Of a stretch of 64,000 bases of DNA, positions 21,547-56,656 are shown piece after piece. The notes under the pieces are model-generated. The model ran no database searches and was not told the DNA's origin. It worked only from the letters and a program-made list of their open reading frames with translations. Source of the stretch: Heterodontus francisci. Taxonomy: Eukaryota. Numbering within the stretch: position 1 is the stretch's first letter; each line of letters starts with the position of its first letter. The translations under genes were made by a program, and so were the position numbers. The stretch covers positions 61,152,591-61,216,590 of the forward strand of contig NC_090391.1 of NCBI RefSeq assembly GCF_036365525.1, given 5' to 3'.

Positions 21547-22551
21547 ATGCAGTTGCGGGACCCTTCTCTCACCATTACATGGTCCATCTCTGACACTTCC
21601 CTTCCCTTCCTCGACTTCTCTGTCTCCATCTCTGGGGATAGGTTGTCTACCAATATCCATTATAAGCCCACTGACTCCCACAGCTACCTCGACTACACTT
21701 CTTCACACCCTACCTCCTGTAAGGACTCCATTCCATTCTCCCAGTTTCTCCGTCTCCGACGCATCTGCTCTGATGATGCTACCTTCCATGACGGTGCTTC
21801 TGATATGACCTCCTTTTTCCTCAACCGAGGATTTCCCCCCACTGTGGTTGACAGGGCCCTCAACCGTGTCCGACCCATTCCCCGCACCTCTACCCTCAAC
21901 CCTTCCCCTCCCTCCCAGAACCGTGACAGGGTTCCCCTTGTCCTCACTTTTCATCCCACCAGCCTCCATATCCAAAGGATCATCCTCCGCCATTTTCGCC
22001 ACCTCCAGCGTGATGCCACTACCAGTCGCATCTTCCCCTCCCTTCCCCTGTCAGCATTCCGAAGGGATCGTTCCCTCCGCGACACCCTGGTCCACTCCTC
22101 CATTACCCCCACCACCTCGTCCCCGTCCCAGGGCACCTTCCCTTGCAATCGCAGGAGGTGTAATACCTGCCCATTTACCTCCTCTCTCCTCACTATCCCA
22201 GGCCCCAAACACTCCTTTCAGGTGAAGCAGCGATTTACTTGTACTTCTTTCAATGTAGTATACTGTATTCGCTGCTCACAGTGTGGTCTCCTCTACATTG
22301 GGGAGACCAAGCGCAGACTGGGTGACCGCTTTGCGGAACATCTCCGCTCAGTCCGCAAGCAGGATCCTGAGCTTCCGGTTGCTTGCCATTTCAACACTCC
22401 CCCCTGCTCTCATGCTCACATCTCTGTCCTGGGATTGCTGCAGTGTTCCAGTGAACATCAACGCAAGCTCGAGGAACAGCATCTCATCTACCGATTAGGC
22501 ACACTACAGCCTGCCGGACTGAACATTGAGTTCAATAATTTCAGAGCATGA
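21547..22551 (+). CDS. Penelope RT C-terminus/thumb, Cys linker and GIY-YIG endonuclease (334 aa; ATG comes from the TSD)
   Basis: PFLD, IHYKPT, CNRRRCNTC, NVVYCIRC..C..LYIGET.R.L..RF.EH, E..LI..L.T..P.GLN; no stops. Expression is unknown. Confidence 0.6.
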   Translation: MQLRDPSLTITWSISDTSLPFLDFSVSISGDRLSTNIHYKPTDSHSYLDYTSSHPTSCKDSIPFSQFLRLRRICSDDATFHDGASDMTSFFLNRGFPPTVVDRALNRVRPIPRTSTLNPSPPSQNRDRVPLVLTFHPTSLHIQRIILRHFRHLQRDATTSRIFPSLPLSAFRRDRSLRDTLVHSSITPTTSSPSQGTFPCNRRRCNTCPFTSSLLTIPGPKHSFQVKQRFTCTSFNVVYCIRCSQCGLLYIGETKRRLGDRFAEHLRSVRKQDPELPVACHFNTPPCSHAHISVLGLLQCSSEHQRKLEEQHLIYRLGTLQPAGLNIEFNNFRA

Positions 22552-23055
22552 CAGCCCCCCACTTTACTTTCATTTTTAGTCATTTTTAGTTATTTTTTCT
22601 TCCTTTTTTTGCATTCCTTTATACATTTTTTGCATTTATTTCATTTCATCTTAGTTTGTTCAGTTTGCTTACCCACTGTTTTTTTCAGGTTGTTTTTCTT
22701 CAGGTTTGCACTTGCTGATGTTCTATATTCAGTATATTCACACCTAATCTGTACTAATGCTTTGTCTTTCAAAACACCATTAACATATTGTTTGCCTTTG
22801 CTCCATGACCTTTTGGTCAGCTATGTGGCCTGGTCCAATCTGCACCTTCTCCTTTGTTATCTCTTGCCCAACCCCCACCTCACTTGTTTATAATCTGTGA
22901 CTTTTCTAATATTTGTCAGTTCCGAAGAAGGGTCACTGACCCGAAACGTTAACTCTGCTTCTCTTTCCACAGATGCTGCCAGACCTGCTGAGTGAATCCA
23001 GCATTTCTTGTTTTTGTTTCAGATTTCCAGCATCCGCAGTATTTTGCTTTTATTT
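21561..23055 (+). mobile_element. 5'-truncated Penelope-like element with 14-bp TSD
   Basis: TSD ATGCAGTTGCGGGA at 21547-21560 and 23056-23069; contains the RT-thumb/GIY-YIG ORF and a 3' terminal repeat. Confidence 0.93.
22918..22954 (+). ncRNA. Minimal type-I hammerhead ribozyme motif
   Basis: Stem I AGUU/AACU, core CCGAAGA (U4C variant) plus an extra A, stem II GGGUC/GACCC, GAAA, palindromic ACGU stem III; predicted cleavage after GUU at 22950. Confidence 0.7.
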
Positions 23056-23982: not shown

Positions 23983-24893
23983 TCAGTTGGTTTGTGTATA
24001 CATTAATTGGGCTATTGATGTAACCAGATGTTTCATTGCACTCTTGACTTGCTCTCTGAACTTTGACTGAGTCACACCATAAATGAAGGTATTTGTGCAG
24101 CAACTTAAATTCATCAACATCAAGCCGACTCTTTCAAGTATGAATTCAGAATTATTGTAATTCCTGGGAGTTGTTCTTGCAATGTTGTAGTATAAGAATT
24201 CTATAACATACACCAGCCACAGAAGTATGAAGCTTCCAGATATGCTGAAGAGCAAAATCACAGACCTCCTTCTGCTCTCCATTTCAGGGTCACTGCGATT
24301 CTCTCCGCTGATCTGAAACCTCAATCCCATCCGGACTCTACTGGCCACGATAATGTGTCTGACAGTCAGAGCATTGAGCAAAAGAATTAAAACGAATGGG
24401 AGTAACGGTGTTGAAACCGCATCAAACCAATCAAATGCCACCCATCCTGGCTCAGTATAATAGTTTGGATTTGTATAACAATCCCATGGTACATTGTTGA
24501 TTACCTCTCCAGATACATATATAAAGTAGGAAGGAACATTTTTGAAACAGAGCAGAGTGCACGTTGTTGTTAGAATCACAGCTGCAGTTTTCTCAGTGCA
24601 GTATTTTGTTTTCAGCTTCCGACAACAAATAGCTACAAATCGATCAAAGGAGAATGTGACAGTGAACCAGACAGAACATTCTTTTGCCGCAAATCTGAAG
24701 ACAGCAATAACACTACAAACAGGGGTGATGTACAGGAAAGATCTGCGGAAATAATAATAACCAATTCGCCACAGTATGATGTCATTGATAATAAACAATA
24801 GATCCGCTATTGCCATGGCCACCAGGTAGCGAGTCGTGCAGGTGGAGAGGCCGCACTTTCTCCTTGACAGGATCATAATCGCCAGTAAATTAA
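23983..24893 (-). CDS. Exon 2 of a GPR139/GPR142-like class A orphan GPCR
   Basis: Acceptor ...TTTCCCTTACAG at 24894, then (V)NLLAIMILSRRKCGLS..TRYLVAMAIADLL, TPVC, SFDRFVAIC, TPLLPF, SGSFILLW, CTNTFIY; TGA at 23985-23983. Seven hydrophobic helices together with exon 1. Confidence 0.93.
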
Positions 24894-26519
24894 CTGTAAG
24901 GGAAAGAAATAAGTTGAGAATAGAAACGTAACTGAGCAAATATTCTCCATGTCTGACCCCTACAATAAGGGCAGGACCTTCGATCAAAGTAACTGGTGGA
25001 GGGGGGTGTGGGAGTTGAGGTTGGGTCAGGGAATACAATTTTGGAGATCTCAACCCTGTCCGCAACCACCTCCGACAGACTGAGGTCCGGGTTTAACAGA
25101 TTGATGACAGGATATGGACAGAAAATCTCTTGCAGGAAGTTGTTCAGAAAGTTAAACATTTTAATGAGGTTCAAAGTCTCTGATTAATCTGCTTACAGGT
25201 TTATCGCTTGTCGTCCAGTTGTTCCCGGTCGACCACACGTTCCATAACGGAAACACCCAGGATTGACACATCCTGGACACATCCGCCGGGCTCAGACATC
25301 AGGCCGCAGCCCCTGGGTTCAAATACCGCCAAGCCAGGATCAGTGGTTCCTTGGAATAGAGAGCCCTCTGGATTTGGATCAGCCAGCATTACACCCGCAG
25401 AGGATTTGGGACCTCTCCTTGAATTGGAACCCACCGGGATCAGAGTCGCCTCATAGGATTGGAATGCCGTTACAGTATGGGACACCTTTCCCAGGATCAG
25501 TCAAATACGGCGTCCCCCTTCGAGATTGGGAACCCCACAAATTAGGTTGCACCATCATGTGTTTAATCAGACGCTCACGATTCAGAGAACACTCCATGAT
25601 AGGGGACCCCTTCCCTTTTGAGGAGCAGACACTCTTATGATCCTCGCCAGACTCTGACCACACTCAAGAATATGAGGCACCTGGCTCAGACCCATCCCCT
25701 GACACTTACATTCCGAGTAAGTCTAGCTCCAGCATATGAGACAATTCTACTGGGTTAGTAATCCCGACACGCACACTCTACTCTACTATTACGGTAATCG
25801 AACCACAGTCCAGTATGGGAGATCTTTCCCAGGAAGTGGGGAACAACATCCCAGCGGTCAGAGTTGTCCCCACTCTTTTCCCCTGTTGCCATTGGGATTG
25901 GACGTCACCTATATCAGTCAGCCCCTTACCCGGAGTTCATGGTTAGGAACACATTGGTCCTGAGGTCTGCTCAATCAGAAAATGAGCATGCAATTAATCT
26001 GGCATAAGGGCGGGGTAACTGACAGGATAAAACAGGAATTCTGTGAAGTTAAACTGCTGAAACTCCTACGAGTGTTTTCATTCCCAGAACACAGTTGTCG
26101 AGGAAGAGAGGATTTTCACGAATGAAACTAAACGAAACAATTCCAAATAGGGCCCTCAGCAGAATAAGATCGATGGAAACTTGCCGATCAATGGTCTCAA
26201 GTTATCTGTCCAGAAAGATCGCATTCTCTTTGAGTTTAAGGAACAGATTGTTTATTACTGGATCTTGGGCAAGTGAGGAAAGACTGGCAGGTTCAGAAAT
26301 GTAACTGGACTTCTGGATGACATTCCCAGCTCAGAAGCACGTTACGTCTGCTGAGGGCATTCGGGACAGAAGCAATCAGTGGATGACAATCTACTGTCTG
26401 AAGACGGGAGAGAGATCTCTGAGGGGGCGGGGGGTGGGGGGGGGGGTGGGGAACTAAACTGGTATATCATACGCAATACAGAAATATTTAAAACATTTAA
26501 TGAAGCAAATGGTGAGATA

Positions 26520-26930
26520 TCTGATGAAGTAATCTAAAGCAGGAAAAAACATCTTGCTCAGATGCATTGTGACCACACAGTAAAAGAAATACAGGGAAGA
26601 GACAGCAGAGGCACGATTATCTGTTCATTAATAATCAGCAAAAGGGGAATGATGTCAGAGAACTGACAGATAGCTACTGTGTTGCTGGTATTTAAAAAGG
26701 CTGGATAGATCAAATCCATGAAATGTAGAGCAGTTAGCATCACGTTACTGGTAGGAATGTTAATGAAATTCGTATTCATAAAATAATTGAAAAATGACGT
26801 GAAACTCATAATATAATAGAGCAGCCAGCACGTATTCCAAAATAAAGGTCATAATTGAACAATCATATTGAATTATTTGCATAATTATCAGAAAGAGCAG
26901 ATAAAACTAATTCAGTGGATGTAATATGCT
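26520..26930 (+). mobile_element. Very degraded CR1 RT fragment
   Basis: Residual resemblance to the EDW..ANV..FKK..Y.PVSLTS and SQH.F region. Confidence 0.5.
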
Positions 26931-27429
26931 GTGGAATCTGCTTGTGCACAGTGCAACCACTGTGTTTTCCACAGAAAGGCATAGGGGTGAAGAGTAGAAT
27001 TCAAAGTCAATAATTCTCCATTGACGTGTCGCTTAAATTAACGTTTACCGTTATCTGCATAACCTGATAGATAATGTTTAATGAATTTGCTTTCCTCTAA
27101 ATTTTCCTCTAAACAGTGGAGTCGTGGACTCCACTCGAGTCTTGTTCAGACGGCGACCAGCAACACCAATAGCAATGCTCAGCTCCCAATGGAGGAAAAT
27201 GCGTCCCTGGCTAAGAGGCAACATTAATCGGATGGACCAGCAGGGCGGCGAGGGACGGCCTTTCTTCGCCAGGTGGCGGATTGAAAGCCAGGATCCCGAC
27301 ACAGGCCGGAGCGGGTTTCCTAGGTCCGAAACTTCTGGATAGCGACCATGAGCACTGCGTCAGCCTGGAGGGCCTGGAGGGCCTGGAGGACGCTGACATC
27401 GAGGAGGCCATCCTCGCACCACCTTAACC

Positions 27430-29790
27430 CCTCATGCACGCCCACTCCCTGTTGTGCATCAAAGTTAGACTTAAACCAAAGAAGCTACATCACTCCAAGC
27501 AGAAGGGCCGCCCGAGCATCAACAGAATTACTCATCCACTGCTGTTCCCTAAGTTTCTAAATTCACTTGAAAAAGAACTTCAAAACACTGCTGCAGGGGA
27601 TGCAGAGACGAAGTGGGCCCATATCAGAGACACCATCTATGACTCTGCAATGACCACCTTTGGCAAACGTGACATGCTAAATGGAGACTGGTTTCACTCT
27701 CACTTTGAAGAGCTGGAGCATGTCATAGCCAATAAGCGCACAGCACTGTTGAACTACAAGGAAGCCCCCAGCGAGTTAACATCTGTAACACTTAAAGTAG
27801 CCAGAGATGCTGTACAAAGAACAGCCAGGCGCTGTGCAATTGACAACTGGCGGCAGTCGTATTCAGCTGCCTCCGACAGCGGAAACATCAGAGGAATGTA
27901 TGATGGCATTAAGAGAGCTTTTGGGCCAACCATCAAGAAGATCGCCCACCCCTCACCAGCCGCTCCCACCCCCGCCACCCTCAAGTCTAAATCAGGGGAA
28001 ACAATCACTGACCAACGTAAACAAATGGACCGCTGGGTGGAGCACTACCTAGAACTGTACTCCATGGAAAATGTTGTCACTGATACTGCGCTCAATGCAG
28101 CCCAGTCCCTGTCAGTCATGATTGAGCTGGAAGAACAGCCAACACAATCGGAACTCAGAGATGCCATTGATTCTCTAGCAAGTGCAAAACCCCCGGAAAG
28201 AAAGGCATTGCCCCTGAAATAATCAAGAGTGCCAAGCCTACAATGCTCTCAGCACTCCATGACCTGCTTTGTCTGTGCTGGGATGAGGGAGCAGTACCAT
28301 AGGACATTCACGATGCCAATAAGAACAAGGTGGCCGTGATGATTGCAAAAACTACCGTGGAATCTGCCTGCTCAGCATCGTGGGGGAAGTTTTAAACCGA
28401 CTCCAGAAGCTGTCTGAGCATGTCTGAGCACCCTAAGGCACAGTGCGGCTTTCGAGCAGCGAGATCCACCATTGACATGCTGTTCTCCCTTCACCTTCTA
28501 TGTGCAAACTTCCGTGAACAACAGATGCCCATCTACATTGCGTTCATAGACCTTACCAAAGCCTTCGACCTCCTCAGAAGACATGGTCTCTTCAGGCTAC
28601 TAGCAAAGATCAGATGTCGACCAAAGCAACCATGACAATATCCTCATTCCACATCATTCCATGACAATATGAAAGGCACAGTTCAGCATAGTGGTGCCTC
28701 ATCAGACCCTTTTCCTATCCTGAGTGGTGTAAAACAGAGCTGTGTTCTCGCAACTACACTGTTTGGGAGCTTCTTCTCACTGCTGGTCTCACGTGTGTTG
28801 AAGTCTTCGGAAGAAGGAACTTTCCTCCACATAAGATCAGATGGCAGGTTGTTCAACCTTGCCCGTCTTAGAGCGAAGACCAAAGTATGGAAAGTCCTCA
28901 TCAGGGAACTCCTCTTTGCTGACAATGCTGCATGAACATCCCACACAGAATAGTTTCTGCAGAGACTCATCGACAGGTTGCAGCTTCCTGCAACGAATTC
29001 GGCCTAACCATCAACCTCAAGAAAACAAATATCATTGGACAGATTGTCCAAAATGCTCCATCAATCAATATTGGCGACCACGCTGTGGAGGTGGTTCAAG
29101 AGTTCACCTACCTAGGCTCAACTATCGCCAGTAAGCTATCTCTCGAAGCCGATATCAACAAGCACATGGGAAAGGTATCCACTGCGATGTCCAGACTGGC
29201 CAAGAGGGTGTGGGAAAATGGCGCACTGACACAGAACACTGAAGTCCGAGTGTTTGAAGCCTGTGTCGTCAGGACCTTGCTCGAAGGCAGCGAGGCCTGG
29301 AAAACCTATGTCAGCCAGGAGCGGTGTCTCAACTCATTCCACCTTCGCTATCTGGGGAGAATCCTTGGCATCAGATAGCAGGACTGTATCTCCAACGCAA
29401 AAGTCCTCGAGGCGGCCAACATCCCCAGCATATAAACCCTACTGAGCCAGCAGCACTTGCGATGGCTGGGCCATGTGAGCCGCATGGTAGATGACAGGAT
29501 CCCCAAGGACGCACTCGTCACTGCTATTAGACCCACCGGCCGTCCATGTCTCTGCTTTAAAGACCTCTGCAAACTCGACATGATGTCCTGTGACATTGAC
29601 CACAAGTCGTGGCAGGCAGGTGCCAGTGATCGCCAGAGCTGCTGGACAGCCATAAAAGCGGGGTTAAAGAGATGCAAGTCAAAGAGAATTAGCAGTAGGC
29701 AGGAACAAAAATGCAGAAGTGCAAGGTGAAAGCCAACTGTGTAACAGCTCCGGCAACCAGCCCCTGTGGAAGACTCTGTCACTCTGGAAT
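27430..29790 (+). mobile_element. Older RTE LINE (fragmented ORF) in the GPCR intron, antisense to the gene
   Basis: QCGFR..RSTIDM, AFIDLTKAFD, GVKQ.CVLA, LLFAD, FTYLGS, RWLGHVSRM; similar to 10179-11067. Confidence 0.92.
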
Positions 29791-29999
29791 TGACCTCTAG
29801 ACGCTTACTCATTTGAGTCATTTGAGTCATTTGGGCCAAAGTAAATACTGTAATTTTCCCACGTCCCTCGATAAGGGAGCTTATCGCAGATTCATACTCA
29901 ATGTTGCAGCTACCGGAGTGAATGCACAAGCAGCAAAATGGGCAGCAAGCTAGCAAATAAAAAAATTAAGCTCGGGGATCGGGGTTAACAATATTTCCT

Positions 30000-30540
30000 C
30001 AGATTAACGGCAGGTGGAAAGTGGTGTTGCACATGGATCAGCAATAGGAAAGCTATTTTCACCATTTATATCATCGATATGGGCAAGGAAATAAAAAGCA
30101 GAATTTCCAAATATGCAGCCAAATCCAATTGAGAGGACAGAGGTACAGACGAAGGGCGCAACAATATACCTGATTACATTAATCATAATTAATAAAGTTG
30201 TGCAATGGTATTTAAATGGAAAAATAAGTTCAGTGTGAGCTGTTGAATTTTGTTCGGACGAATACGCGTCCAAAATACTCCTTGGAAAATAACAGTCTGA
30301 CTAGATGGAAGGGAAAAGAGATTCAATTGTGCAGATTCACAAATCATTTAACCAAGCAAAACTCGGCACAGGACCATAAAGATGCAAATAATGGACTGGA
30401 GTTCATTTCTAGAGGAATGGAATTCTTAAATACCAAAGAGCTGATCTGAAACTAATATAGAAACTTATTATTACAAAGCGCAGAGTACTGAGTACAGTCC
30501 TGCTCACCATGTTGCAAAAAGGGATATCGATAAATTAAAC
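30000..30540 (+). mobile_element. Degraded CR1 RT fragment
   Basis: Decayed SGVPQGS.LG and ISKFADD region. Confidence 0.55.
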
Positions 30541-30593
30541 ACAGTTCAATTATTTTAACCATTGATAAAAGCAATGACAGAAGTGCACTACTT

Positions 30594-31110
30594 GGGCTGG
30601 ATTTAAGAGTCTGATGGCGACTTCTGTGGGATATTCAAAAACTGGGGGGCAGCAATCTCCCGTGTGCTGGCTTATTTAAATAGCTGTGGAGGCCCGCCCC
30701 GAATCACATTGAGGGGGCGGACTTTCTGGCACCGAACTGGCATCAGCTGCTTGTGTGCAGACGCTGGCAGCATTTTAAAGGGAAGCCTGCCCTGCCGTCT
30801 TATTTTAATTTTTAAAGATACACCCCACACTCAACAGAAAAATTCTCAAATACATTTCAAACGCCCTTTCGCACACCCCAACAACAATTAGGTTAAATTT
30901 TTGCTCTTTCCCCAAAGCATTTGCCTTTTACATGTGACCTCCAACCCCTCCTCACACCACAACCCCTCACTCCAAGACAGCACAAAGTAAAAATTTCACC
31001 TCTTCCCACCATCTCCCATGCACATTACAGTTACTTGACCCTTCTCTCCGCACTGAATATCTTAACCGTTCCCCCCTCCAGACAAGTGTCACGCCGGCTT
31101 TCCCTGGATG
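30594..31110. mobile_element. Possible non-autonomous DNA transposon (MITE-like) fragment
   Basis: Begins GGGCTGGATTT; GC-rich with the inverted pair CCCGCCCC...GGGGGCGG. No second TIR was found. Confidence 0.3.
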
Positions 31111-31129
31111 GAGTACTAAATGTGTAGGA

Positions 31130-32760
31130 GTGTCAGCCACAACACCAAAGATCGTGACTTCCAAAAGGCATTTGACAAAGTGTCACTCAACAGACCTTTG
31201 AGCAAAGCTCTCGCCCATGGACTAAAGAGGAGAGTAGCAACATGGAGACAGTATTGCCTGAGCGACAGGAAATAGAGAATATGATGTTGCCTAGTCTGGA
31301 GGGCTTGAGTGAAAAAGAGAGATTGGAGAGGCTGGGTCTGTTTTCCCTGGAGCGAAGGAGACTGATAGGGGACATGATAGAGGTATATAAAATTATGAAA
31401 GGCATAGCTAGGGTAGATAGCCAGTGTCTGTTTCCCATGGTAGAGGCGAATAAAACTAATGGGCATAGATTTAAGTTGAGAGGGAGGAGGTTTAAAGGGG
31501 TTTAAAGGGGTAAATTTTTCACACAAAGAATAATGGGTATCTGTAATGATCTGCTGAGGATGTGGTGGAGGTAGGGACAGTAGCGACATTTAAGAGGCAT
31601 CTGGACAGCTACTTGAATGAGCAAGGCATAGAGGGATATTGAATTAATGCAGGCAGGTGGGATTAGCATAGATAGTCATTATGTTTGCCATGGATGCAGT
31701 GGGCTGAAGGGCCTGTTTCTATGCTGTACGACTCTATGACCCTATAATAGTGGTTATTGCAAGTTTTTTTTTAAAGGTTAGAGGTTGGTTTCATAATGAA
31801 GTTCCCTGTGGGTCGACTTTAGGCACTTGCACTTCATCATACATATTAGTGCTCTAGACCTTGTTGTACAGGCATCATCTCAAAATTTGACAATAATACC
31901 ATATTTGGAAACACGATTAACTGTGATGAGGCAAGGATAGACCTCCAAAAGCACCTAGACAGGCTGACGGAATTGGCGAACAATTGGCAGATACAATTTA
32001 ATGCAGAGAAGTATGAAGTGAATCATTTTGCTAGGACGAAAGCAGAAACTCAATATAAATTAAAGGGCACAATGGTAAACATGATCCAGGAGCAGGGCGA
32101 CCTGCTGAGTGTATAAGTGCATTATTCATTGAAAGTGGTCGGACTGATTTCGACAACGATTACTAAAGCATACAGTGTCCTAGGCTCTCTTCTTAGAGAC
32201 AGAGAGTACAAAAGCAAGGAAGATATATTAAACTTGAATAGAACATTGGTTCGGCCTCAACTTGAGTACTGCTCCTGGTCTGTGGCCCCAAACATTATGA
32301 AAGTTTTGACGACATTAGAGAACATGCAGCAAAAGTTCTCGAGAAGGGTCCCAGAGATGATGAACTTCAGTTACTGTTAACCGGGGATTTGATAGAGGTA
32401 TTCAAAATCATTGGAGGTGTGGACACAGGAGATACAGATAATCTTTTCTCATTGGTGGAGGGATGGATGTCAAGAGACTACAGATTTAAGATAATTGCAA
32501 AAGGAAGCAATGACGACATTAGGAAACGTTTTTTTTATGCGGTTAGTTGTTTGGGATCTTGAATGGACGGCTTGACAGTGTTGTGGAGGTAGGGTCAACT
32601 GAGGCATGCAAGAAGAAATTGGATTGTTAAAGGCAAAACAGAAGTATGTTCGGGGCTACGAAGGTAATGCAATGGAATGCCAGGAGATACATTGCTCCTT
32701 TAGGGCACAACATAGGCACGATCGGCTGAACGGTCTCGTTATGTGTTGTAACAATGCTGT
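31130..32760 (+). mobile_element. Cluster of degraded CR1 fragments
   Basis: DFQKAFDKV; ORFs 31242-31505 and 32117-32380 (VRPQLEYC); (GACTCTAT)n tail at about 31730. Confidence 0.75.
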
Positions 32761-33083
32761 AATCCTGTTTATTTTTGTTAAAGAAAGCTCATGCTGCAAA
32801 AGATTTGAATACTTAAGAGTGCTGTCCTGCTGTTTAGCTGACAGTAAATTGTAAATATCCGTTTCTGCTTTGGCATTTCATTTGGACACGGAACGACATC
32901 AATGCATTTCAATTTAAACATTTATTACCAAGCATCAGCAAAAAACTTTGCAATCTGTCGCATTCTTAAAACACATGAGGCAGCTTCACGGAACGGAGAA
33001 AGCAGTCACTTGAAACAATGGTTTCAAATAGAAGCACATTCAATAATTGTAATCAGTAACAAAAAGAATTCAGCAGTAATATA

Positions 33084-33436
33084 TAGATTAGATTAGAGAT
33101 ACAGCACTGAAACAGGCCCTTCAGCCCACCGAGTCTGTGCCGACCATCAACCACCCATTTATACTAATCCTACACCAATCCCATATTCCTACCAAACATC
33201 CCCACCTGTCCCTATATTTCCCTACCACCTACCTATACTAGTGACAATTTATAATGGCCAATTTACCTATCAACCTGCAAGTCTTTTGGCTTGTGGGAGG
33301 AAACCGGAGCACCCGGAGAAAACCCACGCAGACACAGAGAGAACTTGCAAACTCCACACAGGCAGTCCCCAGAATCGAACCCGGGTCCCTGGAGCTGTGA
33401 GGCTGTAGTGCTAACCACTGCGCCACTGTGCCGCCC
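33084..33436 (-). mobile_element. Full-length HE1-like V-SINE
   Basis: GGGCGGCACAGTGGCGCAGTGG (A box), GGTTCGATTC (B box), V-domain GTGTGGAGTTTGCAAGTTCTC...GGTTTCCTCCCAC, CR1-type stem-loop and (AATCT)n tail. Confidence 0.92.
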
Positions 33437-33454
33437 AATACATTCTTAGTAATA

Positions 33455-33700
33455 CATGGCACTGGGAATAGGTATTCCACTCCCGTTAGTGACCCACGCT
33501 CAATAAAATTCTACTGTGACAGTATTCACAGTAATACAAGGCAAATGGGGACAGCTGTTCCATTCCAGTTAGTAACCCATACTCAGTACAATTCTACAGT
33601 GATAGATTCACCTAGTAATACATAGTTCTGGGGTCACGTATTCCATTCCAGTCAGTGACCTATTCTCAACCCAATTCTACAGTGAGTGATACTCCCACTC
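33455..33700. repeat. Degenerate 83-bp tandem repeat, about 3 units
   Basis: TTCCA(C/T)TCC(C/A)GT(T/C)AGT(G/A)ACC at about 33475, 33558 and 33641, each followed by AATTCTAC(A/T)GTGA. Confidence 0.75.
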
Positions 33701-34002
33701 ATGCCTTCACTCAGAGACTTACATTCGCTGCGTTTCAATGCAGCAGTGCACAATCTTTCACAAATTGTATTAACTTCACAAGTCATACATCTGATTAGTT
33801 ACTAACAGAGGTTTATTATCAGCGAAGTCAATAGAATAAAAACGCAGCAAGAATTCAAAATATTTGACATAAGGAAATGACATTTTTTATCGCGTGTCTG
33901 TATAGTTGTGCCCACCAGATCACCGTGCATTATTATCAGTCACAGCGTAACACCAGGATCCATCTCCCACACAGATATACACATCAGGTTATAGTCACTT
34001 AC

Positions 34003-34069
34003 CAGGAACACCAATGACGGCAAGGGTCATGTCATATATTTTCACGATACTGTCAACTGGTTGGTGCAT
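34003..34069 (-). CDS. Exon 1 of the GPR139-like GPCR (MHQPVDSIVKIYDMTLAVIGVP, phase 1)
   Basis: ATG with A at -3; 67 nt ending CCTG|GTAAGT. Splicing to 24893 restores GVPVN in TM1; total 978 nt = 325 aa plus stop. Confidence 0.9.
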
Positions 34070-34156
34070 TCTCTGTGTGAAGTGATATGTGCCTTCACGC
34101 TGTTCAATATGTCACTGTATTAAACTCTCCGAGGCAATACCTTCTCAGAGTCTTTA

Positions 34157-34163
34157 ATTTATA
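34157..34163 (-). promoter_or_regulatory. Candidate TATA box of the GPCR gene
   Basis: TATAAAT about 90 nt upstream of the exon 1 ATG. Confidence 0.6.
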
Positions 34164-34584
34164 CCCTCTGGGATATTCCTGGAAACATTGTGGTTGCAAC
34201 ATCTTTCAAACTTTTTTTAATTTGAGCTAATAGATTACGACATCAAGTTCGATCCATGTCATCATAGAATATATTTGGTTCTGGGATAGACATAGGAAAC
34301 GCCAAAGACTGGACAATGTTCGTTACATTAAATGATCAGGAAAAAATATCAGCAGTCTCCCAGCAATCTGGTCGTTGTTTAAACATGATCAATGCCATCT
34401 CTAGACTATATATTATTTGAGTGTTGGTCTTCACTCAACTATGACCTTTCAATAATAAAATTCCAAATGTTTAGATGTCTCTGTCTTCGGGTTAATCTGT
34501 TGCACTGTGTGATGTGGCTGCTCTATTTAACGGTGAGCAGGCAGTTACATGACCTAAATAGGTTATTTGTGACTATGAAGTGCA

Positions 34585-35002
34585 GGATTCAACTAAAACA
34601 GCATCAGCAACTAATTCAACACCGCAGACTGATATACATTGTTATGGAATGCAGAACCTCAAACTACTACAATGCTTGAAACCAACAGAATAACTCTATT
34701 AATACAGACCCGCCAGCCGATGCAGCCTGGGAGCCCCAACATATACTATTTCTCCAACCGATTCTCACTCTCAAAACGATAAAAGCCAACTGATATTGAT
34801 CCTCCAAATCCTACCAACTCCCCACCAGAAGCAACACTTCCATCAGAATCATTCCCTCCAACTAATACACACATTCAAGCTGAGGCAGACACTTCAAGTG
34901 AAACGGCATCTTAATATAACATAACAACTCAACATTATAGTTTGTCTGAAACTAATGCAGTCCTCAAACTAAAACCTCATCTGAAATTAATACAATTAAA
35001 CC
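34585..35002 (+). repeat. Decayed 18-bp-period repeat (CAAACTAATACA-like), resuming at 36404-36535
   Basis: Recurring (C/G)AAACTAA(T/C)(A/G)CA-like words; reads as Pro/Thr/Asn/Ser-rich hexapeptides with stops and frameshifts. Confidence 0.5.
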
Positions 35003-35827
35003 TGTTCTGACTACAGCGGGAGCACTGCACTGTTAAGTCAATCTCATCGCTCCAAAGGTCACAGCAACTTGCTTTAAGCTTTCTGAATCAAATAGGCAGC
35101 AAAATTGAACACTCTGGTATCCCCCCGAATGAAGCAGACCGAACCAGGTATCTTTGGGCAATAACAAATTAAGTATTTATTTAAGTAAACTAAAATCTTA
35201 AACGCCACTAAGATAACCATTTGTCTAAAGACCTCACACCTATCTATTTAAAAATCTAACCTCCACATTCGCATATACATATTCAAACTAACAATCATTC
35301 AATTTTTACATAGCTGATCGTTGAGCATAAGATAAAAACGAATGTCTTTATAAGTTATGTTCCTGATGAACGGCGTCTTCCAATGCAAAAACAGTCAACG
35401 TTTGCTTGATGGGTTCACAGTGGTATAATGCAAAATAAAACCCTTCAAAGAGAGGAATTCAACAGTTCAGCTGTTGTAGCATTAAATTTCCCTTCAGTGA
35501 TGTACACAGAAAATACTGATAATTTGTTAATAAAGAAAGTCTTTCCTTATTTTCTTAGGGAATTAATTTGGCTTACAGCTTTATGGAATAATGAGAGAAG
35601 AATAACACAACTTCTTCAGTTCAAATCGCCTCAGAACTCTCTTTGCTGAAAATGCAAAATTGAATCACGTGACCTTCCTCTCCCGCTGCTTCGTTTTGGC
35701 AACGACAATGCAACTGGCAGTCTGAGTCTCCAGAACTTTCTGTCTTAAAGGTGCAATGATCTTCATACAGTCTTAAAGGCATATACAATATTTCTGAGGA
35801 GAAAAAGAAATAAACAAGACCGTGGCA
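35003..35827. mobile_element. Possible solo LTR
   Basis: TG...CA ends, CACGTG box, AATAAA near the right end; interrupts the 18-bp repeat. No clean TSD. Confidence 0.3.
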
Positions 35828-35829
35828 AT

Positions 35830-36403
35830 AAAGCTTCTCTCACTGAAGCAACAACTGGAGTATTGCTTCCAGTTCTGGATACCACACTTCAGGATGAAAG
35901 TGAGGGACCTTAAGGGCGTCCGGAGGAGATTTCCCCGACTTGTTCCAGGGATGGATTATTTTGTTACAGCATACAAATTTGGATAGGTCCTCATTGGAAC
36001 AAAGGAGATCGATGCGTGATTTAATGGAATAATACAAGATTTCAATTGGCTAAGATAAGTTAAACAAGGAGAACCTGTTTCCCTTAACTAATGGTGTAAG
36101 GAACTGGGCCAAAGATTGAACGCGTTGGGCAAGAGATGCAGGGGGAATTTGAGGAAGCATTTTTTCTTATGCAGCCGGTGGTAATGACGTGGGTTTTGCT
36201 GCCCACAAGAATGGTGGAAGCGGATACAATTAATGCCTTAAAGAGAAAGTTGGGTGATCACTTCAGAAAAAGATATTGCAGCAGTACAGTGATCGAGTGG
36301 GGGTGTGAGACTGAATGAATAGCTCCATGGAGAGCCGGCATGGAATCGATGGGCCGCATGGTCTCAGTCTGCGCTGTAAAAAGACTCCATGACTCCATGA
36401 CTT
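35830..36403 (+). mobile_element. Degraded CR1 3' fragment
   Basis: QLEYC.QFW.PH region and (GACTCCAT)n tail. Confidence 0.7.
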
Positions 36404-36669
36404 TATAACTAATACAGACGTTGAAACAAATATACTACTTCCATTTAATGCAGTATCTCAAGCAAGCACCTCAAACTAACACAAAACCTAAAAGTAATAC
36501 TGCTGCTCAAACTAATACAGTACACAAACTCGTGCAGCTGGAAATTGTAGAATCAATGCACTTTACGGCACATAAGTAGGCCATTCGCCCTATTTCATCT
36601 GTGCCAACCAACAAAGGGTAACTTAATCTTATCGTACTTCCCAGTACTTAATCTGTCCTCTGACAGTTT

Positions 36670-38760
36670 GCTACCAGGATGGTTGGCGGATGAGTGCACC
36701 CTCGGCCACTCTGCTGCTAGCGGTGTTGTGGGTACCTGTGATTCAGAGCCACCATCCGCCTCCGTCCCAAGACAAGTGAGCAGCCCAGGGAAGTCAGTTC
36801 ATCCTGTCTCTGGAAATACAGCCAGATACGAGACCAAAGCTTTCCCCACTAGCGCCCACAGGCTCAGAAAAACGGTGAACAATTCAATTCAGTTCATATT
36901 ATGGAAATAGAGCTTTCTGTTGGGCATATCCCAGATGGCTAGAATGGGTGACTGTCATAGGTACCGCCAAATTCCAGGACACTTGACCCAGCGGCATACA
37001 GTGTATTTTCTCCTGGTGGGACCACAGCCTTCTGCAGCACAGGCCGGTGCTCCCCTCCTCAGGCATTGCCAAATTTACAGTGGCTTCACTCCTGACTCCG
37101 TCCATACGGATAGCAAGCTGCAAGCCTAGGTTCGAGGTCCTGATGCTTCTGATGGTGGAGACAACCTTAGGTTACGCAACAGCAGATGGCCCCTGCAGCC
37201 CAAGGCCCTCTTCAGAGGAGGCACGCCTCCTCCTCTTAATCAGCGAAGGTTGCGGAGTGACAGAGACTTCCATCTCACTGGAGATTTCAGCTTCTTTCTC
37301 CACCCCCTACTGCCCAAAATCCTTCAACATCAACTCAGCGTGGGGCACGTGGGTTCCCCTGAGAATGCCCAGGGCAGAGCTCAGGCTCACGTTGTTTTCC
37401 CTGTCCGGACAGCGTGCATTCATGTGTTTTATTTTGCACCATCCCTTCCTTCCACACAGGCCGTCCCCCCACCCCTGCAGAATCCATGCAATCAATGGCA
37501 TTTGAAGCAGCCTGAGCCGTGACTGTTGCAGGTGGAGGGCAGGGGGAGCAGCGCCAAACCTGTCTGATGAAGTGTAGCTGGCAGCCCAGTATTTAGGAAA
37601 ACATACAGCTGGCAGCAGAAGAGGCAGACGAGTTATAGTCTGGTCTCCTCAAACCCGAGATGGACTGGAGTGATGCCCGACCTCTCCTCTCTGAGATGGT
37701 GCAGGTGGTGGAGAAGGGTGGGACTTTAGCTGACAGAAACCACTGCTCCTGATTCCCAGAGTGTCCACTGGCAGAAAGGTCCCGACCAAAGAGATCCTCC
37801 TGGTCAAGGCCTGGGACAAAGCCCACTCGCCCTTCACGAGAAACAGCGTCGTTCCATATATTTTAGAGGCTGTGACAATGTCCGAGGGACCAACAACCTC
37901 AGCCATTGTCTTTACACAAGCCTCAGCAGTCATAGTTGGGTAGGCATAATTCTGCACTCCATGCTCTGCTGTTTGATGCCTGACTAGTAACAAGGCTGTA
38001 AGAGTGGCTGCAGCAGCCATTGCAGAATAGGAGGGCCACCAAGGGACAGGTCAGAGAAGCCATAGGGCAAAAGAGTGTCACACACACACACACACACACT
38101 TTGCTGAAAAAGTGAATTAAAACGAATAATTATGTATTATAATTGAAATACATGGAGGGTTATGGCAAGCGGGGTGGAGGGGGCGTGTCTGAGGGAGAGG
38201 ATGGCCAAGCGGAATCAATATTTGCAGCTATAATAATGGAGAGCAGTCCGTTCACTGGTCTTCGAACTGTAGGGGTTGGGGATGTCTTTCGCCAAACAGC
38301 TGAAGTTGTGCAGTCACACTCCTATGCTGAAGTTATGAGACAGAAAAAGAAGAGCCTTCCCCACCCCCACCCCACCGCCACCACCACCCGCCCCCCCTCA
38401 CCCCGGCAGCTCTAGCTGTCCCTGATCAGCGGAAGGAGCTGCCGATTTATGGTGACAAACAACACCATAAACCCCGATTGAAACAGACAGCCCCACCCGA
38501 GGTATTTTGACTCGTCCTCCTCCCTCAACAATCTAGAATAACATTGACTCAAAACTCCAAAAAAACATCACAAAAGTTCTTTCAGGTCTTGTGTCTTCCT
38601 GTTGCCTCCCTTCAGTGACAAAAAAATGGAAAACCTTCCCTTCAGTCTCAGTCGCTGTCTCTCCCTCCCTGCTGCACTTGCAAACAGCTCACAGTCTGCA
38701 GTCAGCCAAACATTGTTGATTCTCACTGTTCCTGAGCAGCTCCAAGCAAGTAGCAGCGGG
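36670..38760 (-). mobile_element. Tx1/L1-clade LINE 5' UTR and decayed ORF1
   Basis: ORF 37649-38020 HGVQNY..P.MT.EACVK.MAEVVGPS.IV.ASK.YG..LF...GTFLPV resembles Tx1 ORF1; (CA)n at about 38079-38099. Confidence 0.7.
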
Positions 38761-38769
38761 CACAGTGTG

Positions 38770-38932
38770 ATAGATGTCCAGGGGGTGTTTTATGGCGACT
38801 TTATAGAGGGAGATTTACTCAGTATCTAACCCGTGCTGTACCCTCCCTGGGAGTGTTTGATGTGGACAATACAATGGGTACATTACTCTGTAGCTAACAC
38901 CATTTTTTTCCTTTTTATTGTCGAGGGAGCTT
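38770..38932 (+). repeat. ~67-bp minisatellite (GAGGGAGCTTTACTCTGTATCTAACCCGTGCTGTACC..GGGAGTGTTTGATGGGACAGT-like), left part
   Basis: Units at about 38808 and 38876; the same motif family recurs at 50261-50370 and 50690-51030. Confidence 0.7.
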
Positions 38933-40278
38933 TTTTCTTTATTTAACCCCATTTTTGTTATGATGGGCTTCATAACTCAGTTCCTTTTTATATTTCTGTT
39001 GTGGGGGCTTTTCTTCCTCAGGCCCAGTTTGAATGCATTTTACAAAGCAGTTTTATTAAAATCGCATAACTAACAGAAAACTCAAAGTAAAATGCCATTT
39101 TTGGCATCGATGATGCACTCCAGCCCCTGTGGTACCCCTATATCTTGCAAGGCATTAACCGAACTAGCGGACATCATATGCTCCTTCTCCAGGGACACCC
39201 GCACGTGAATGTAACCTCGAAAGAGGGGCAGTCAATCAGGGCCTATGGACCCCGAGCCGCCTGCAGCCTGGACCTGCGAATTGCCATCTTGGGCTGGCCC
39301 AGGAGCAGACCGACGGCGAGATACTCTTCCCGGCCCACCCCACCCCTTCTCCCCACTCCGCACTGGCTGCAAATGATCAGGAGCTTGGGGCTGAAGTGCA
39401 ACCAAAACGTGAGCAGCCACCCTTTCAAATACCCAAAGAGGGGCTGCAACGTCGCACACTCTGCATATACATGGAACACAGACTTGTCCAGGCTGCAGAA
39501 ATTGCAGGCTCCCGGGAATCCATGAACCGACTTAAAAGTCTATTCCACGGGCTGCCCTGTCTACGATGTAAAGGGGAAGGACTCCCACGCAAACACCTCC
39601 ACTGGGATTTCCCTTCACTGCCAGTTGGCAACACAAACCGTCATGGTGTATCCAGGTGAAAGACGAGGGCGAGCAAGTGGGGAGTGTGAAGGAGCAGCCC
39701 GTACTAGAAACCCCTCTCTGTTCTGTGGATTGGCAGGGAGGGCATTTCCGAGAGGCAGGTCAGGTTATGTGGAACTGAAGCCCAAGCAGTGTTTCTGAGC
39801 CTGGGTCCACTGAACAGTTCCAGCTGAGCGGGATTCAGCTTGGCCGGGCGTACTCCAAACTCCTGTGCCCTCTGGTCACCCACAGTGAGGGACACCCCAG
39901 CAGCATCGGCTATTCGTCTGCTCATCTTTACATCCCGAGAGCCAATTGCCTGGCCAGCCAAGACACTCTCCTGCACCAACTGGGAGCGCCTTTATTGTTG
40001 GCGACCATGTTCCAGAATCTAAATAGATCATGGTCAAAGACGGGTAGCTCCCTCAGAGAGGCGCGGATCACGTTCTCGACGGGAAGCTGAGTGTCGTCTT
40101 GAAGGCAGTGCCCCTGCGCACACACTCTGGAAGTATGCTCGACATACAAGTATCTCTGCACGGTCTAAAGGCAGACAGTTGCAACCTGGGTGCGTACGCA
40201 CACCAGCAACTGGCCAACCTCCACAATTGGGAGACTCAGGACCTTAGCAGAGTCCCAGTGTTTCTTCTTGCCCCAGAA

Positions 40279-51985: not shown

Positions 51986-54900
51986 AGACATCACCGATAG
52001 TAATGTTGTTGAATGTCAAGGGAAGATGGCTGGATGCTAAATTGATTGACCTGAAGTTATAGGGTTTATCCCCTCTCTCCTTTTCTTTGAACTTCGGGTC
52101 AAAGTGGTAACCTTCAGACTTTTTGCAGCACTCACATATCAAAGCAGAACTGGAAGAGTTTAATCAATGTCTCTGCTATTTTCACCTTGCCATCGATCAG
52201 CAGCCATCATACATCTCATACAGTCTGTTAAATGTTTTAATTTATTCTGCGACAAAATAAGGTGCATTTAATCATTGGAAAGAATTAAGCCAATATCTTT
52301 GGATCCAGGTACAAAATCCATTCTTTATCCAAAAACTCTATTCTCTTCTCAGCCAAATATGTGAGGCGAAAGCACATGGATCCGTTTGACACTGAGCTGC
52401 CTCTGATCCCAGATAATTTCCATTATCACACTATCACACTGCAGCTCAGCCCATCTGCTGCATAAACCTTCATGCCTTTATTGAATCTGGAAAATTTCGA
52501 CCTTAATGCTACCTGGAGTCAACCTCCAAGTCAGAAAGCTCAATAGATTACAAATCATCCAAAGCTCTGCTGTCAGAGAACATAGAACATGGAACATAGA
52601 ACATTACAGCGCAGTACAGGCCCTTCAGCCCTCGATGTTGCGCCGACCTGTGAAACCATCTGACCTACACTATTCCATTTTCATCCATATGTCTATACAA
52701 TGACCACTCAAATGCCCTTAAAGTTGGCGAGTTTACTACTGTTGCAGGCAGGGCGTTCCACGCCCCTACTACTCTCTGTGCAAAGAAACTACCTCTGACA
52801 TCTGTCCTATATCTATCACCCCTCAACTTAAAGCTATGTCCCCTCGTGTTTGCCATCACCAGCCGAGGAAAAAGGCTCTCACTATCCACCCTGTCCAACC
52901 CTCTGATTATCTTAGAAGTATCTATTAAGTCACCTCTTCTCCTCCTTCTCTCCAACGAAAACAACCTCACGTCCCTCAGCCTTTCCTCGTCAGACCTTCC
53001 CTCCATACCAGGCAACATCCCAGTAAATCTCCTCTACACCTTTTCCAAAGCTTCCACATCCTTCCGATAATGCGGTGACCAGAACTGCACGCAATACTCC
53101 AGGTGCGGCCGCACCAGAGTTCTGTACAGCTGCAGCATGACCTCGTGGCTCCGAACCTCGATGCCCCTACTAATAAAAGCTAACACACCATATGTCTTCT
53201 TAACAGCTCTATTAACCTGGGTGGCAACTTTCAGGGATTTATGTACCTGGACACCAAGATCTCTCTGCTCATCTACACTGCCAAGAATCCTCCCATTAGC
53301 CCAGTACTCTGCATTCCTGTTACTCCTTCCAAAGTGAATCACCTCACACTTTTCCGCATTAAACTCCATTTGCCATCTCTCAGCCCAGCTCTGCAGCCTA
53401 TCTATGTCCCTCTGTACCCTACAACATCCTTCGGCACTATCCACAACTCCACCGACCTTCGTGTCATCTGCAAATTTACTAACCCACCCTTCTACACACT
53501 CATCCAGGTCATTTATAAAAATGACAAACAGCAGTGGCCCCAAAACAGATCCTTGCGGTGCACCACTAGAAACTGTACTCCAGGATGAACATTTACCATC
53601 AACCACCACCCTCTGTCTTCTTTCAGCTAGCCAATTTCTGATCCAAAGCACTAATTCACCTTCAATCCCATACTTCTGTATTTTCTGCAATAGCCTACCG
53701 TGGGGAACTTTATCAAACGCCTTACTGAAATCCATATAGACCACATCCACGGCTTTACCCTCATCCACCTGTTTGGTCACCTTGTCAAAAAACACAATAA
53801 GGTTTGTGAGGCACGACCTACCCTTCACAAAACCGTGCTGACTATCTCTAATGAACTTATTCTTTTCAAGATGATTATAAATCCTCTCTCTTATAACCTT
53901 TTCCAACATTTTACCCACAGCCGAAGTAAGGCTCACAGTTCTATAATTACCAGGGCTGTCTCTACTCCCCTTCTTGAACAAGGGGACAACATTTGCTATC
54001 CTCCAGTCTTCCGGCACTATTCCTGTCGACAATGACGACATAAAAATCAAGGACAAAGGCTCTGCAATCTCCTCCCTGGCTTCCCAGAGAATCCGAGGAT
54101 AAATCCCATCTGGCCCAGGGGACTTATCTATTTTCACACTTTTCAAAATTGCTAACACCCCCTCCTTTTGAACCTCAATCCCATCTAGCATAGTTGTCTG
54201 TATCCCAGTATTCTCCTCGACAACATTTTCTTTCTCCACTGTAAATACTGACGAAAAATATTCATTTAACACTTCCCCTATCTCCTCCGATTCCACACAC
54301 AACTTCCCACTACTATCCTTGATTGGCCCGAACCAGTCTCTGGCCATTCTTTTATTCCTGATATACCTATAGAAAGCCTTAGGGTTTTCTTTGATCATAT
54401 CCGCCAATGATTTCTCGTGTCCTCTCCTTGCTCTTCTTATCTCTCCCTTTAGATCCTTCCTGGCTAGCTTGTAACTCTCAAGCGCCCTAACTGAGCCTTC
54501 ACGTCTCATCCTAACATAAGCCTTCTTCTTCCTCTTGACAAGCTCTTCAACTTCTTTAGTAAACCACGGCTCCCTCGCTCGACAACTTCCTACCTGCCTG
54601 ACAGGTACATACTTATCAAGGACACGCAGTAGCTGCTCCTTGAATAAGCTCCACATTTCGATTGTGCCCATCCCCTGCAGTTTCCTTCCCCATCCTACGC
54701 ATCATAAATCTTGCCGAATCGCATCATAATTTCCTTTCCCCCAACTATAATTCTTGCCCTGCTGTATCTGCCTGTCCCTGCCCATCGCTGAGGTAAACCT
54801 AACCGAATTGTGATCACTATCACCAAAGTGCTCACCAACCTCTAAATCTAACACCTGGCCGGGTTCATTACCCAGTACCAAATCCAATGTGGCATCGCCC

Positions 54901-55552
54901 CTGGTTGGCCTGTCTACATACTGTGTCAGAAAACCCTCCTGCACACACTGGACAAAAACAGACCCATCTAAAGTACTCAAACTATAGTATTTCCAGTCAA
55001 TATTTGGAAAGTTAAAGTCCCCCATAACCACTACCCTGTTACTCTCGCTCCTGTCAAGAATCATCTTTGCTATCCTTTCCTCTACATCTCTGGAACTATT
55101 TGGAGGTCTATCGAAAACTCCCAACAGGGTGACCTCTCCTCTCCTGTTTCTAACCTCGGCCCAGACTACCTCAGTAGACGAGTCCTCAAACGTCCTTTCT
55201 GCCGCTGTAATACTTTCCTTGATTAACAATGCCACCCCCACCCCCTCTTTTACCCTCTTCTCTGTTCTTCGTGAAACATCTAAATCCCGGAACCCACAAC
55301 ATCCATTCCTGTCCCTGCTCTACCCATGTCTCTGAAATGGCCACAACATCGCGATCCCAGGTACCAACCCATGCTGCAAGCTCACCCACCTTATTCCGGA
55401 TGCTCCTGGTGTTGAAGTAGACGCATTTTAAACCAAGCTCTTGCTTGCCAGTGCCCTCCTGCGTCCTTGTAACCTTATCCCTGACTTCACTACTCTCAAC
55501 ATCCTGTACACTGGAACTACAATTTAGGTTCCCATCCCCCTGCTGAATTAGT

Positions 55553-56491
55553 TTAAACCCCCCCGAAGAGCACGAACAAATCTCCCCCCCCCAGGATATT
55601 GGTATCCCTCTGGTTCAGGTGAAGACCATCCTGTTTGTAGAGGTCCCACCTACCCCAGAAAGAGCCCCAATTATCCAGGAAACCAAAACCCTCCCTCCCA
55701 CACCATCCCTGCAGCCACGTGTTCAACTCCTCTCTCTCCCTATTCCTCACTTCGCTAGCACGTGGCACGGGCAACAACCCAGAGAGAACAACTCTGTTTG
55801 TTCTTGCTCTAAGCTTCCACCCTAGCTCCCTGAATTTCTGCCTTAAATCCCCATCTGTCTTCCTACCTATGTCGTTGGTGCCTATCTGTACCACGACTTG
55901 GGGCTGCTCCCCCTCCCCCTTGAGGATCCCAAAAACACGATCCGAGACATCACGTACCCTGGCACCTGGAAGGCCACACACCAACCGTGAGTCTCTCTCG
56001 TTCCCACAAAACCTCCTATCAGTTCCCCTAACTATGGAGTCCCCAATGACAAATGCTCTGCTCCTATTTCCCCTTCCCTTCTGAGCAACAGGGACAGACT
56101 CTGCGCCAGAGACCTGTACCCCATTGCCTACCCCTGGTAAGTCGTCTCCCCCAACAGTATCCAAAACGGTATACCTGTTGTTGAGGGAAACGGCCACAGG
56201 GGATCCCTGCACTGCCTGCTGGTTCCCTCTCCTTCCCCTGACGGTAACCCATCTACCTTCTTCTTTTACCTGAGGTGTGAATGCCTCCCGATAACTCCTC
56301 TTAATAATCCCCTCCGCCTCCCGAATGATCCGATGTTCCTCCAGCTCCAGCTCCAGTTCCCTAACGCGGTCCTCGAGGAGCTGGAGCTGGGTGCACCACC
56401 CGCAGATGCAGTCAGCAGGGACACCCTTGGCGACCCTTACCTCCCACATTCTGCAGGAGGAACATTCAACTGCCTTAACCTCCGTTCCCAC
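55553..56491 (-). CDS. CR1 ORF1p: Cys-rich zinc-binding N-terminus, coiled coil, SGNH/GDSL esterase domain
   Basis: CSSC..W, C..C, LEDRVRELELELEE, VIGDSIVR, IGTNDIG, DGLHL; probable frameshift in the terminal G-run. Confidence 0.85.
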   Translation of the reverse strand: MGTEVKAVECSSCRMWEVRVAKGVPADCICGWCTQLQLLEDRVRELELELEEHRIIREAEGIIKRSYREAFTPQVKEEGRWVTVRGRRGNQQAVQGSPVAVSLNNRYTVLDTVGGDDLPGVGNGVQVSGAESVPVAQKGRGNRSRAFVIGDSIVRGTDRRFCGNERDSRLVCGLPGARVRDVSDRVFGILKGEGEQPQVVVQIGTNDIGRKTDGDLRQKFRELGWKLRARTNRVVLSGLLPVPRASEVRNREREELNTWLQGWCGREGFGFLDNWGSFWGRWDLYKQDGLHLNQRDTNILGGGDLFVLFGGV

Positions 56492-56656
56492 TATTCTAAA
56501 TTCCCAAGTTTTTAACCAATCACACGATAAAACAAGAAGAGAACTAGAAAAAGCCTTACCTTACCTACACACAACCGAGTCCTTTTTTTTGTTAAGAGGA
56601 GGAGGGTGGGTGGGAGACACTACAAGAGTAGTGTCTCGGGTTCAGAAACATCAGAA

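Follow-up and report, generated by a model that had tools for sequence, protein, structure and literature searches.

The Two-Exon Receptor Gene of the Window

We analysed a 64,000-nt stretch of Heterodontus francisci DNA (NCBI RefSeq assembly GCF_036365525.1, contig NC_090391.1, positions 61,152,591 to 61,216,590 of the forward strand), called the window below. On its minus strand lies a gene for a G-protein-coupled receptor (GPCR) of class A, and our finding is the receptor family of this gene, together with a branch of that family with variable first exons, rather than the single gene itself. A preliminary description of the DNA had proposed an intact two-exon gene, and its coordinates were recomputed exactly (Table 1). 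The 67-nt exon 1, which ends in phase 1 with CCTG before the donor GTAAGT, is joined in the gene model across a 9,109-nt intron to exon 2, and the spliced coding sequence (CDS) of 978 nt encodes 325 amino acids with its sole stop codon at the end. The intron closes with a pyrimidine tract and AG, and the TATA box of the earlier account is in place.

Table 1. Positions of the features discussed, in window coordinates.
Feature	Positions	Strand	Remark
TATA box (TATAAA)	34158..34163	-	94 nt before ATG
Proximal promoter and 5' untranslated region	34070..34470	-	alignable among paralogues
Exon 1 CDS, 67 nt, type A	34003..34069	-	short N-terminus and first half of transmembrane helix 1 (TM1); phase-1 GT donor
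Codon 13, Asp	34031..34033	-	private to the window copy; Tyr in the family
Phase-1 intron, 9,109 nt, repeat-rich	24894..34002	-	position and phase as in the GPR139 orthologue and the GPR210-like gene
352-nt intron insertion	33086..33437		absent from five near-identical copies
Exon 2 CDS	23983..24893	-	remaining part of TM1, TM2 to TM7, helix 8; stop 23985-23983; Pfam 7tm_1 E 2.7e-21
Insertion, 1,495 nt	21561..23055		GIY-YIG-like open reading frame
CR1-type element	53034..56560	-	long interspersed nuclear element (LINE)

The junction base is common to the paralogues. When a consensus donor pattern was scanned over window positions 24894-40000, the exon-1 donor was the only match, and the acceptor AG falls on the identical base in 30 of the 30 best exon-2 paralogues. 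Exon 1 could be mapped at 18 of 20 loci, always with 67 nt (GT donor in 14, mutated donor in 4). A homologous 22-residue first exon (at least 7 identities) was found in 46 of the 108 anchorable sequences among 120 public relatives, whose commonest length is 325 residues (29/120). Moreover, a 167-nt contig from run X3, taken by guess to be RNA, lies with bases 80-118 on exon 1 and 114-167 on exon 2 (11 mismatches), which indicates that a paralogue is spliced at the same junction as in our gene model. No contig at least 95% identical to the window copy was found in three same-sample runs, a result that says nothing on expression.

The stop-to-stop open reading frame (ORF, 369 residues) extends into the intron, and the public model of the gene (P0001, XP_067909636.1, 368 residues) has an unrelated N-terminus. 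Thus, the mis-start that had been suspected is real, and a single-exon gene starting within the intron was rejected in favour of the two-exon model. Genes of this family are often mis-modelled because the 67-nt first exon is missed.

An Asp in TM1 had also attracted attention. The residue is indeed Asp13, but its supposed meaning did not survive comparison, since it is private: Tyr occupies the position in five near-identical copies and in all other mapped exon-1 loci, and 49 relatives carry Tyr (44), Phe (3) or His (2). A role as ligand anchor was rejected for this reason. The window copy departs from the consensus at 8 columns that are at least 90% conserved, which is a typical number. It is one of six segmental duplicates that share their flanks and 98-99% nucleotide identity, one of which carries two stops. 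The window copy is a young duplicate and otherwise an ordinary family member of type A with a single first exon; the surrounding 184 kb of gap-free sequence contain only one exon 1, so the gene has no first-exon array.

Receptor Class and Kinship

The window protein scored 76.7 bits against Pfam 7tm_1 (cut-off 30.5), which places it in class A (rhodopsin-like). DRF (D106-R107), C82/C161, W248 and N290-T291-x-x-Y294 are all present and invariant in 49/49 relatives, as the preliminary description would lead one to expect from DRF, the TM3 and extracellular loop 2 (ECL2) cysteines and NTFIY. In the x.50 numbering for class A, which we assigned in this analysis, N1.50, D2.50, C3.25, D-R3.50, P5.50, W6.48, N7.49 and Y7.53 all occur in the window protein and are invariant in the 49 relatives except N1.50 (48/49), and P6.50 and P7.50 are absent from it. 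Predicted models of two relatives (P0008, P0152) have seven helices, helix 8 and a hairpin in ECL2. Their Foldseek TM values to class A receptors are about 0.65-0.73; the best matches are peptide-type class A receptors, and chemokine and peptide receptors are among the fold neighbours. GPR139 was not singled out (rank 36 in one search, absent among the 50 matches listed in another), so the fold searches show class A only.

No profile specific to the OR, TAAR, V1R, V2R or T2R families matched; only PF00001 matched the window protein at E ≤ 0.01, and the same held for relatives P0153 and P0227 at E ≤ 0.001. Among distant look-alikes of the family, Srw chemoreceptor domains occur on 17-74% of members, which speaks for a chemosensory role.

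We then examined kinship. The best solved-structure match by sequence was human GPR139 (PDB 7VUG; E 2.9e-6 for the single sequence, 1.8e-15 for the family profile). The GPR139 orthologue of this genome is a separate locus, L111 on C24, with one match in the genome; identity is 28%. A second GPR139-related gene, L112, also has one match, and its relatives are found across jawed vertebrates. In both, as in the window gene, the codon that precedes N1.50 is interrupted by a phase-1 intron. In a tree of 48 rows, the 24 shark, skate and ray rows grouped together as a single clade (97/90), with an orphan receptor of amphibians and sturgeon as its sister group (99/99). GPR139 (L111) fell outside on a long branch, in a tree rooted at the midpoint only, with the exclusion read from its topology. 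GPR139 orthology was rejected on these grounds, and placement as the single-copy orthologue of a known receptor, which the preliminary description had named as fatal to its proposal, does not apply. The window gene belongs to a broad GPR139/GPR142-related group, given the shared TM1 intron and its nearest characterised relative by sequence, for which GPR139 was the member compared.

GPR139 requires F3.33, H5.43, W6.48 and N7.38 for binding Trp and Phe (PMC5430874). Of these, only W6.48 is fixed in the family (49/49); position 3.33 is variable (R20, C10, Y5 and others), 5.43 is T28/K14 and 7.38 is G47. The window copy has F3.33 and W6.48 only, and the suggestion of a GPR139-like pocket for aromatic amino acids is not borne out. 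Human GPR139 and L111 resemble the family in the intron just before N1.50, in W6.48 and in the lack of Pro at 7.50. The family differs from them in having the ECL2 Cys and a longer ECL2 and intracellular loop 3 (ICL3).

Two other groups are close. The amphibian/sturgeon orphan (Pleurodeles XP_069092602.1 and relatives), which carries the automatic name 'probable GPR139', shares a similar ICL3 motif and the short N-terminus. Unlike the shark family, it comprises about one cluster per species (20 amphibian entries and one sturgeon), is 32% identical and is unexpanded within the search range. GPR139-related orphans of coelacanth, fishes, amphibians and reptiles form the next-closest clade and have the intron position and phase of the family (L112), but show one match in the genome and a clade of their own (100/100). 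They are probably the GPR210A/B of Rinne et al. 2019 (PMC6504862), a match of names that we infer. A single-copy GPR210-like receptor is annotated as a TMEM183A isoform in zebra shark and a frog (P0302, P0400), which suggests conserved linkage that is useful for orthology.

Family Size and Turnover

A protein search of the genome listed 130 best loci, all at least 70% identical, and many of them cluster on C29, C28, C21 and C22. Exact exon-2 pattern matches were far more numerous: 1,253 for ICL3, 1,280 for TM7 and 5,863 for a TM3 20-mer (controls 0, 0 and 14). In samples drawn non-randomly from the first 100 listed places, 60/60 ICL3 matches were family exons (32 intact), and so were 19/19 TM3 matches (13 intact), the latter judged from hidden Markov model output. 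The TM3 pattern was found in only 59 of 90 family loci compared, so this pattern misses family loci. A rough reading of these patterns would be a few thousand loci, more than half of them intact. The lineage-specific expansion proposed earlier was thus understated, since the pattern counts reach thousands of loci.

The best 120 of 2,175 database relatives are all from sharks, and skates and rays appear among representatives at 50% identity; the taxonomic range covers sharks, skates and rays. The family undergoes birth-and-death turnover.

Some further loci were recorded. In four related exon-1 copies (L041-L043, L045) the donor GT has become AT; this sub-lineage is dead but went on duplicating. 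About 24 family genes at C5:200.6-206.5 Mb form repeating blocks built from a small number of subtypes; in some of them, two first exons lie in tandem, separated by about 5 kb.

Selection on the Inner Face and the Pocket

We estimated the ratio of nonsynonymous to synonymous substitution rates (dN/dS) for 32 non-redundant sequences out of 56 intact exon-2 sequences. The ratio was 0.43 overall; a value near 1 throughout, which the preliminary description had set against its own proposal, is not seen. It was 0.26 (0.20-0.32) for the cytoplasmic half and 0.64 (0.52-0.77) for the outer half, with non-overlapping bootstrap intervals, and of the 40 sites that vary most, the outer half contains 34. 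A site model placed about 12% of sites at omega near 2 (twice the log-likelihood difference, 2dL, 53.8). A posterior >0.9 was reached at 22 sites. Of these, 20 lie in the outer half, among them 3.29, 3.32, 3.33, 5.43, 7.35, 7.36 and 7.39, positions that line class A pockets. Residues around the ECL2 Cys are also among the positively selected sites. The cytoplasmic half is under purifying selection and the pocket positions are under positive selection.

First-Exon Arrays of the Type B Branch

The exon-1 donor pattern has 4,509 matches in the genome; its type B variant has 3,496, compared with 1,245 for the type B body pattern. The N-terminus encoded by the type B first exon is longer: 14-residue repeats with sequons for glycosylation are accompanied by a variable stretch rich in aromatic residues, and the exon also supplies half of TM1. 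In a predicted model (mean predicted local distance difference test score, pLDDT, 86), residues 17-27 form a short helix ahead of a long TM1; by this prediction, the variable exon contributes an extracellular helix, rich in aromatic residues, in front of TM1.

Two gap-free regions have same-strand, same-phase first exons followed by one constant exon with none between. At C21:40,957,001-41,154,100, seven distinct first exons precede one intact body exon (7:1), and at C21:59,378,001-59,588,000 three precede one (3:1). Distinct type B first exons are likely to splice to one shared body exon. No body exon was found downstream of 18 type B first-exon units (0/18) in the DNA examined, mostly about 9 kb. 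The 196 kb of an array at C7:138,604,305-138,800,550 contain nine first-exon units and lack a body exon; this array was set aside as proof of a shared body, because the link crosses a 200-N gap and the nearest body exon is frameshifted. Similar arrays are listed on C21:1.1-2.2 Mb and C22:3.3-7.5 Mb.

The layout resembles multiple-variable-first-exon clusters (PCDH alpha/gamma, UGT1, UGT2A, GCNT2; PMC1885805) in its tandem same-strand, one-phase first exons before a constant exon, and in the TATA-like element of most type B first exons. Compared with PCDH and UGT1 clusters, the type B variable exon is tiny (about 46-90 codons), the constant exon is most of a GPCR, and there are many units per genome. 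The available part of PMC1885805 names no GPCR among such clusters.

The arrays bring to mind the clustered protocadherins in another respect, in that stochastic promoter choice could make these receptors tags of cell identity or self-recognition, as in neural wiring or gamete recognition. The variable-first-exon arrays fit such a role, as do the helix predicted before TM1 and the fact that GPR139 is a brain receptor (PMC12208981). However, selection in type A genes is seen in a buried pocket for small ligands and no adhesion domain is present; we consider this quite improbable.

It is also conceivable that most copies are passengers of segmental amplification, with a small functional core and with extra copies and first exons that are largely debris. 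The six near-identical copies with shared flanks, one with two stops, accord with this, and so do the repeating blocks on C5 and the type B body exons that are 91-100% identical across many small contigs. First exons add a further point, since their dN/dS over 27 units was about 1.05 (0.73-1.47; TM1 half 0.57, 0.24-1.3), and purifying selection is not shown by it; the estimate is uninformative, and its set contained a type-A-like unit and a unit that is partly broken. Against this account stands the structure of the first exons. A nucleotide-level search gave 19 full units, of which 16 keep the ATG, open frame and GT, and indel events per pair were 0.33 in the exon and 3.99 in the adjacent intron (12-fold fewer) at 75.5% and 72% identity. 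Moreover, the inner-half dN/dS is 0.26, stop-free bodies make up 133 of the 135 best type B matches (a score-biased set), type B proteins occur in zebra shark annotations, and both types A and B are present in other sharks. Passenger amplification is an unlikely account of most copies.

Promoters, Transcripts and the Proposed Function

In 13 non-redundant paralogue promoters, TATAAA was present in 11 (shuffled mean 4.25, max 9). An O/E-like half-site at about -114 occurs in some paralogues and is degraded in the window copy. A STAT-like palindrome at -115 was rejected, with 3/13 promoters against a shuffled maximum of 4. Judged from these sequences, the promoters offer at most a weak hint of olfactory expression in the family.

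Our reading of the family is a chemosensory repertoire with a shared cytoplasmic signalling face and pockets diversified for different ligands, to which we give a probability of about one half. The family has the features of a repertoire, being large and clustered, with pseudogene turnover and pocket diversification. It resembles the OR, TAAR, V1R and ORA repertoires in class A fold, clusters, birth-and-death, hypervariable pocket and conserved cytoplasmic face, and differs in belonging to another lineage, in matching only Pfam 7tm_1 and in its coding intron in TM1. All members would signal through the one conserved face, possibly via Gq/Gi by analogy with GPR139, and each would detect different ligands with its own pocket. 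Lineage and fold point to small external peptides or derivatives of amino acids as the probable ligands, and the receptors would be expected in sensory cells of the nose, skin or gill. In type B, promoter choice among first exons could add N-terminal diversity.

More tentatively, the shark and ray family may be the largest vertebrate GPCR family and a fifth, unrecognised chemosensory repertoire, in which type B first-exon cassettes (extracellular lid helices) are spliced to a shared body. For comparison, PMC11979771 gives 1,948 ORs for the elephant, a number that the locus count of this family surpasses.

Several results weigh against a chemosensory repertoire. A one-mismatch (core) O/E-like site is found in 7/13 homologous promoters (shuffled mean 0.58) and in none for the window copy, and homeodomain sites are not enriched (TAATTA 5/13, shuffled 2.38; TAATGA 2/13, shuffled 3.93). 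Each of the three unlabelled libraries contains paralogue contigs, one of which is unspliced, and this may reflect non-sensory or leaky transcription. Broken loci make up 28/60 of the ICL3 sample and 6/19 of the TM3 sample, and 132/135 best type B matches lie on high-numbered contigs, so haplotype duplicates may inflate the counts. The site model is our own coarse-grid implementation without a gene-conversion control. The window copy deviates at 28 columns at least 80% conserved, the second highest of 50, with Y13D and Y311H/P312L among its deviations at conserved columns, and it may for this reason be drifting. A top-50 list for brain and olfactory tissue in catshark has no GPCR, which is a weak negative because known V2Rs are also missing from it. 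Finally, shark olfactory neurons are reported to be fully microvillous, with V2R/OlfC as the main family (PMC10116579).

The same data could be explained by an innate-immune or barrier repertoire that detects microbial or damage-derived peptides on leukocytes or epithelia, which is possible but doubtful. Formyl-peptide and Mas-related receptors are the working model for such a system. Pocket selection, birth-and-death and clusters fit immune receptors equally well, as do the contigs in all three libraries and the chemokine and peptide receptors among the fold neighbours; O/E factors are also B-cell factors. However, an octamer of immunoglobulin type was found in none of the 13 promoters, and two single-cell papers on shark immunity do not mention GPR139-type genes in their supplements (4 files and 1 small file), where gene labels may differ.

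Two further kinds of contig were observed. An unspliced contig across the exon-1/intron boundary of a paralogue (window 33932-34025) occurs in all of X1-X3 at depth 23-72. In two contigs, the exon-2 acceptor is fused to unrelated sequence. These contigs could represent intron retention, read-through or cryptic upstream exons.

Other Features of the Window

Of the intron sequence, 48% matches repeats found in 60 other loci. About 0.9 kb past the stop codon, the 1,495-nt insertion with its GIY-YIG-like ORF (probably Penelope-type, a name we give by inference) has a 14-nt flanking duplication and is absent from the five near-identical copies. The CR1-type LINE has a GDSL-esterase ORF1 and a 555-residue open reverse transcriptase stretch, and fragments of other LINEs fill the window. 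At C21:61,149,552 (+), 3 kb left of the window, a divergent exon 2 of the family faces the window gene; no first exon for it turned up in the 37 kb searched upstream.

Implications for Shark Receptor Biology

Public annotation shows the family only as 'probable GPR139', a label assigned automatically. A full-text literature search, with most subscription papers outside its reach, found no description of a GPR139-like expansion in cartilaginous fish or of a variable-first-exon GPCR. GPR139 or G-protein-coupled terms had 0 matches in two elasmobranch genome papers. The available portions of PMC11979771, PMC10116579, PMC5430874, PMC6504862, PMC12208981, PMC1885805, PMC10620051, bioRxiv 2025.02.26.637739, PMC11372145 and PMC10529500 do not describe the family.

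The catshark has 2 OR and 6 OR-like genes, 2-3 genes in each of the other small families and 32 V2Rs (PMC11979771). In the accepted view, the receptors with which sharks smell number no more than a few dozen (PMC11979771, PMC10116579), and thousands of pocket-diversified GPCRs bear on this paradox. If the family is immune instead, it would amount to a large, hitherto unrecognised system of innate receptors in the most ancient lineage of jawed vertebrates. If GPCRs are indeed made from variable first exons and one body, the design of the protocadherins and UGT1A would extend to GPCRs.

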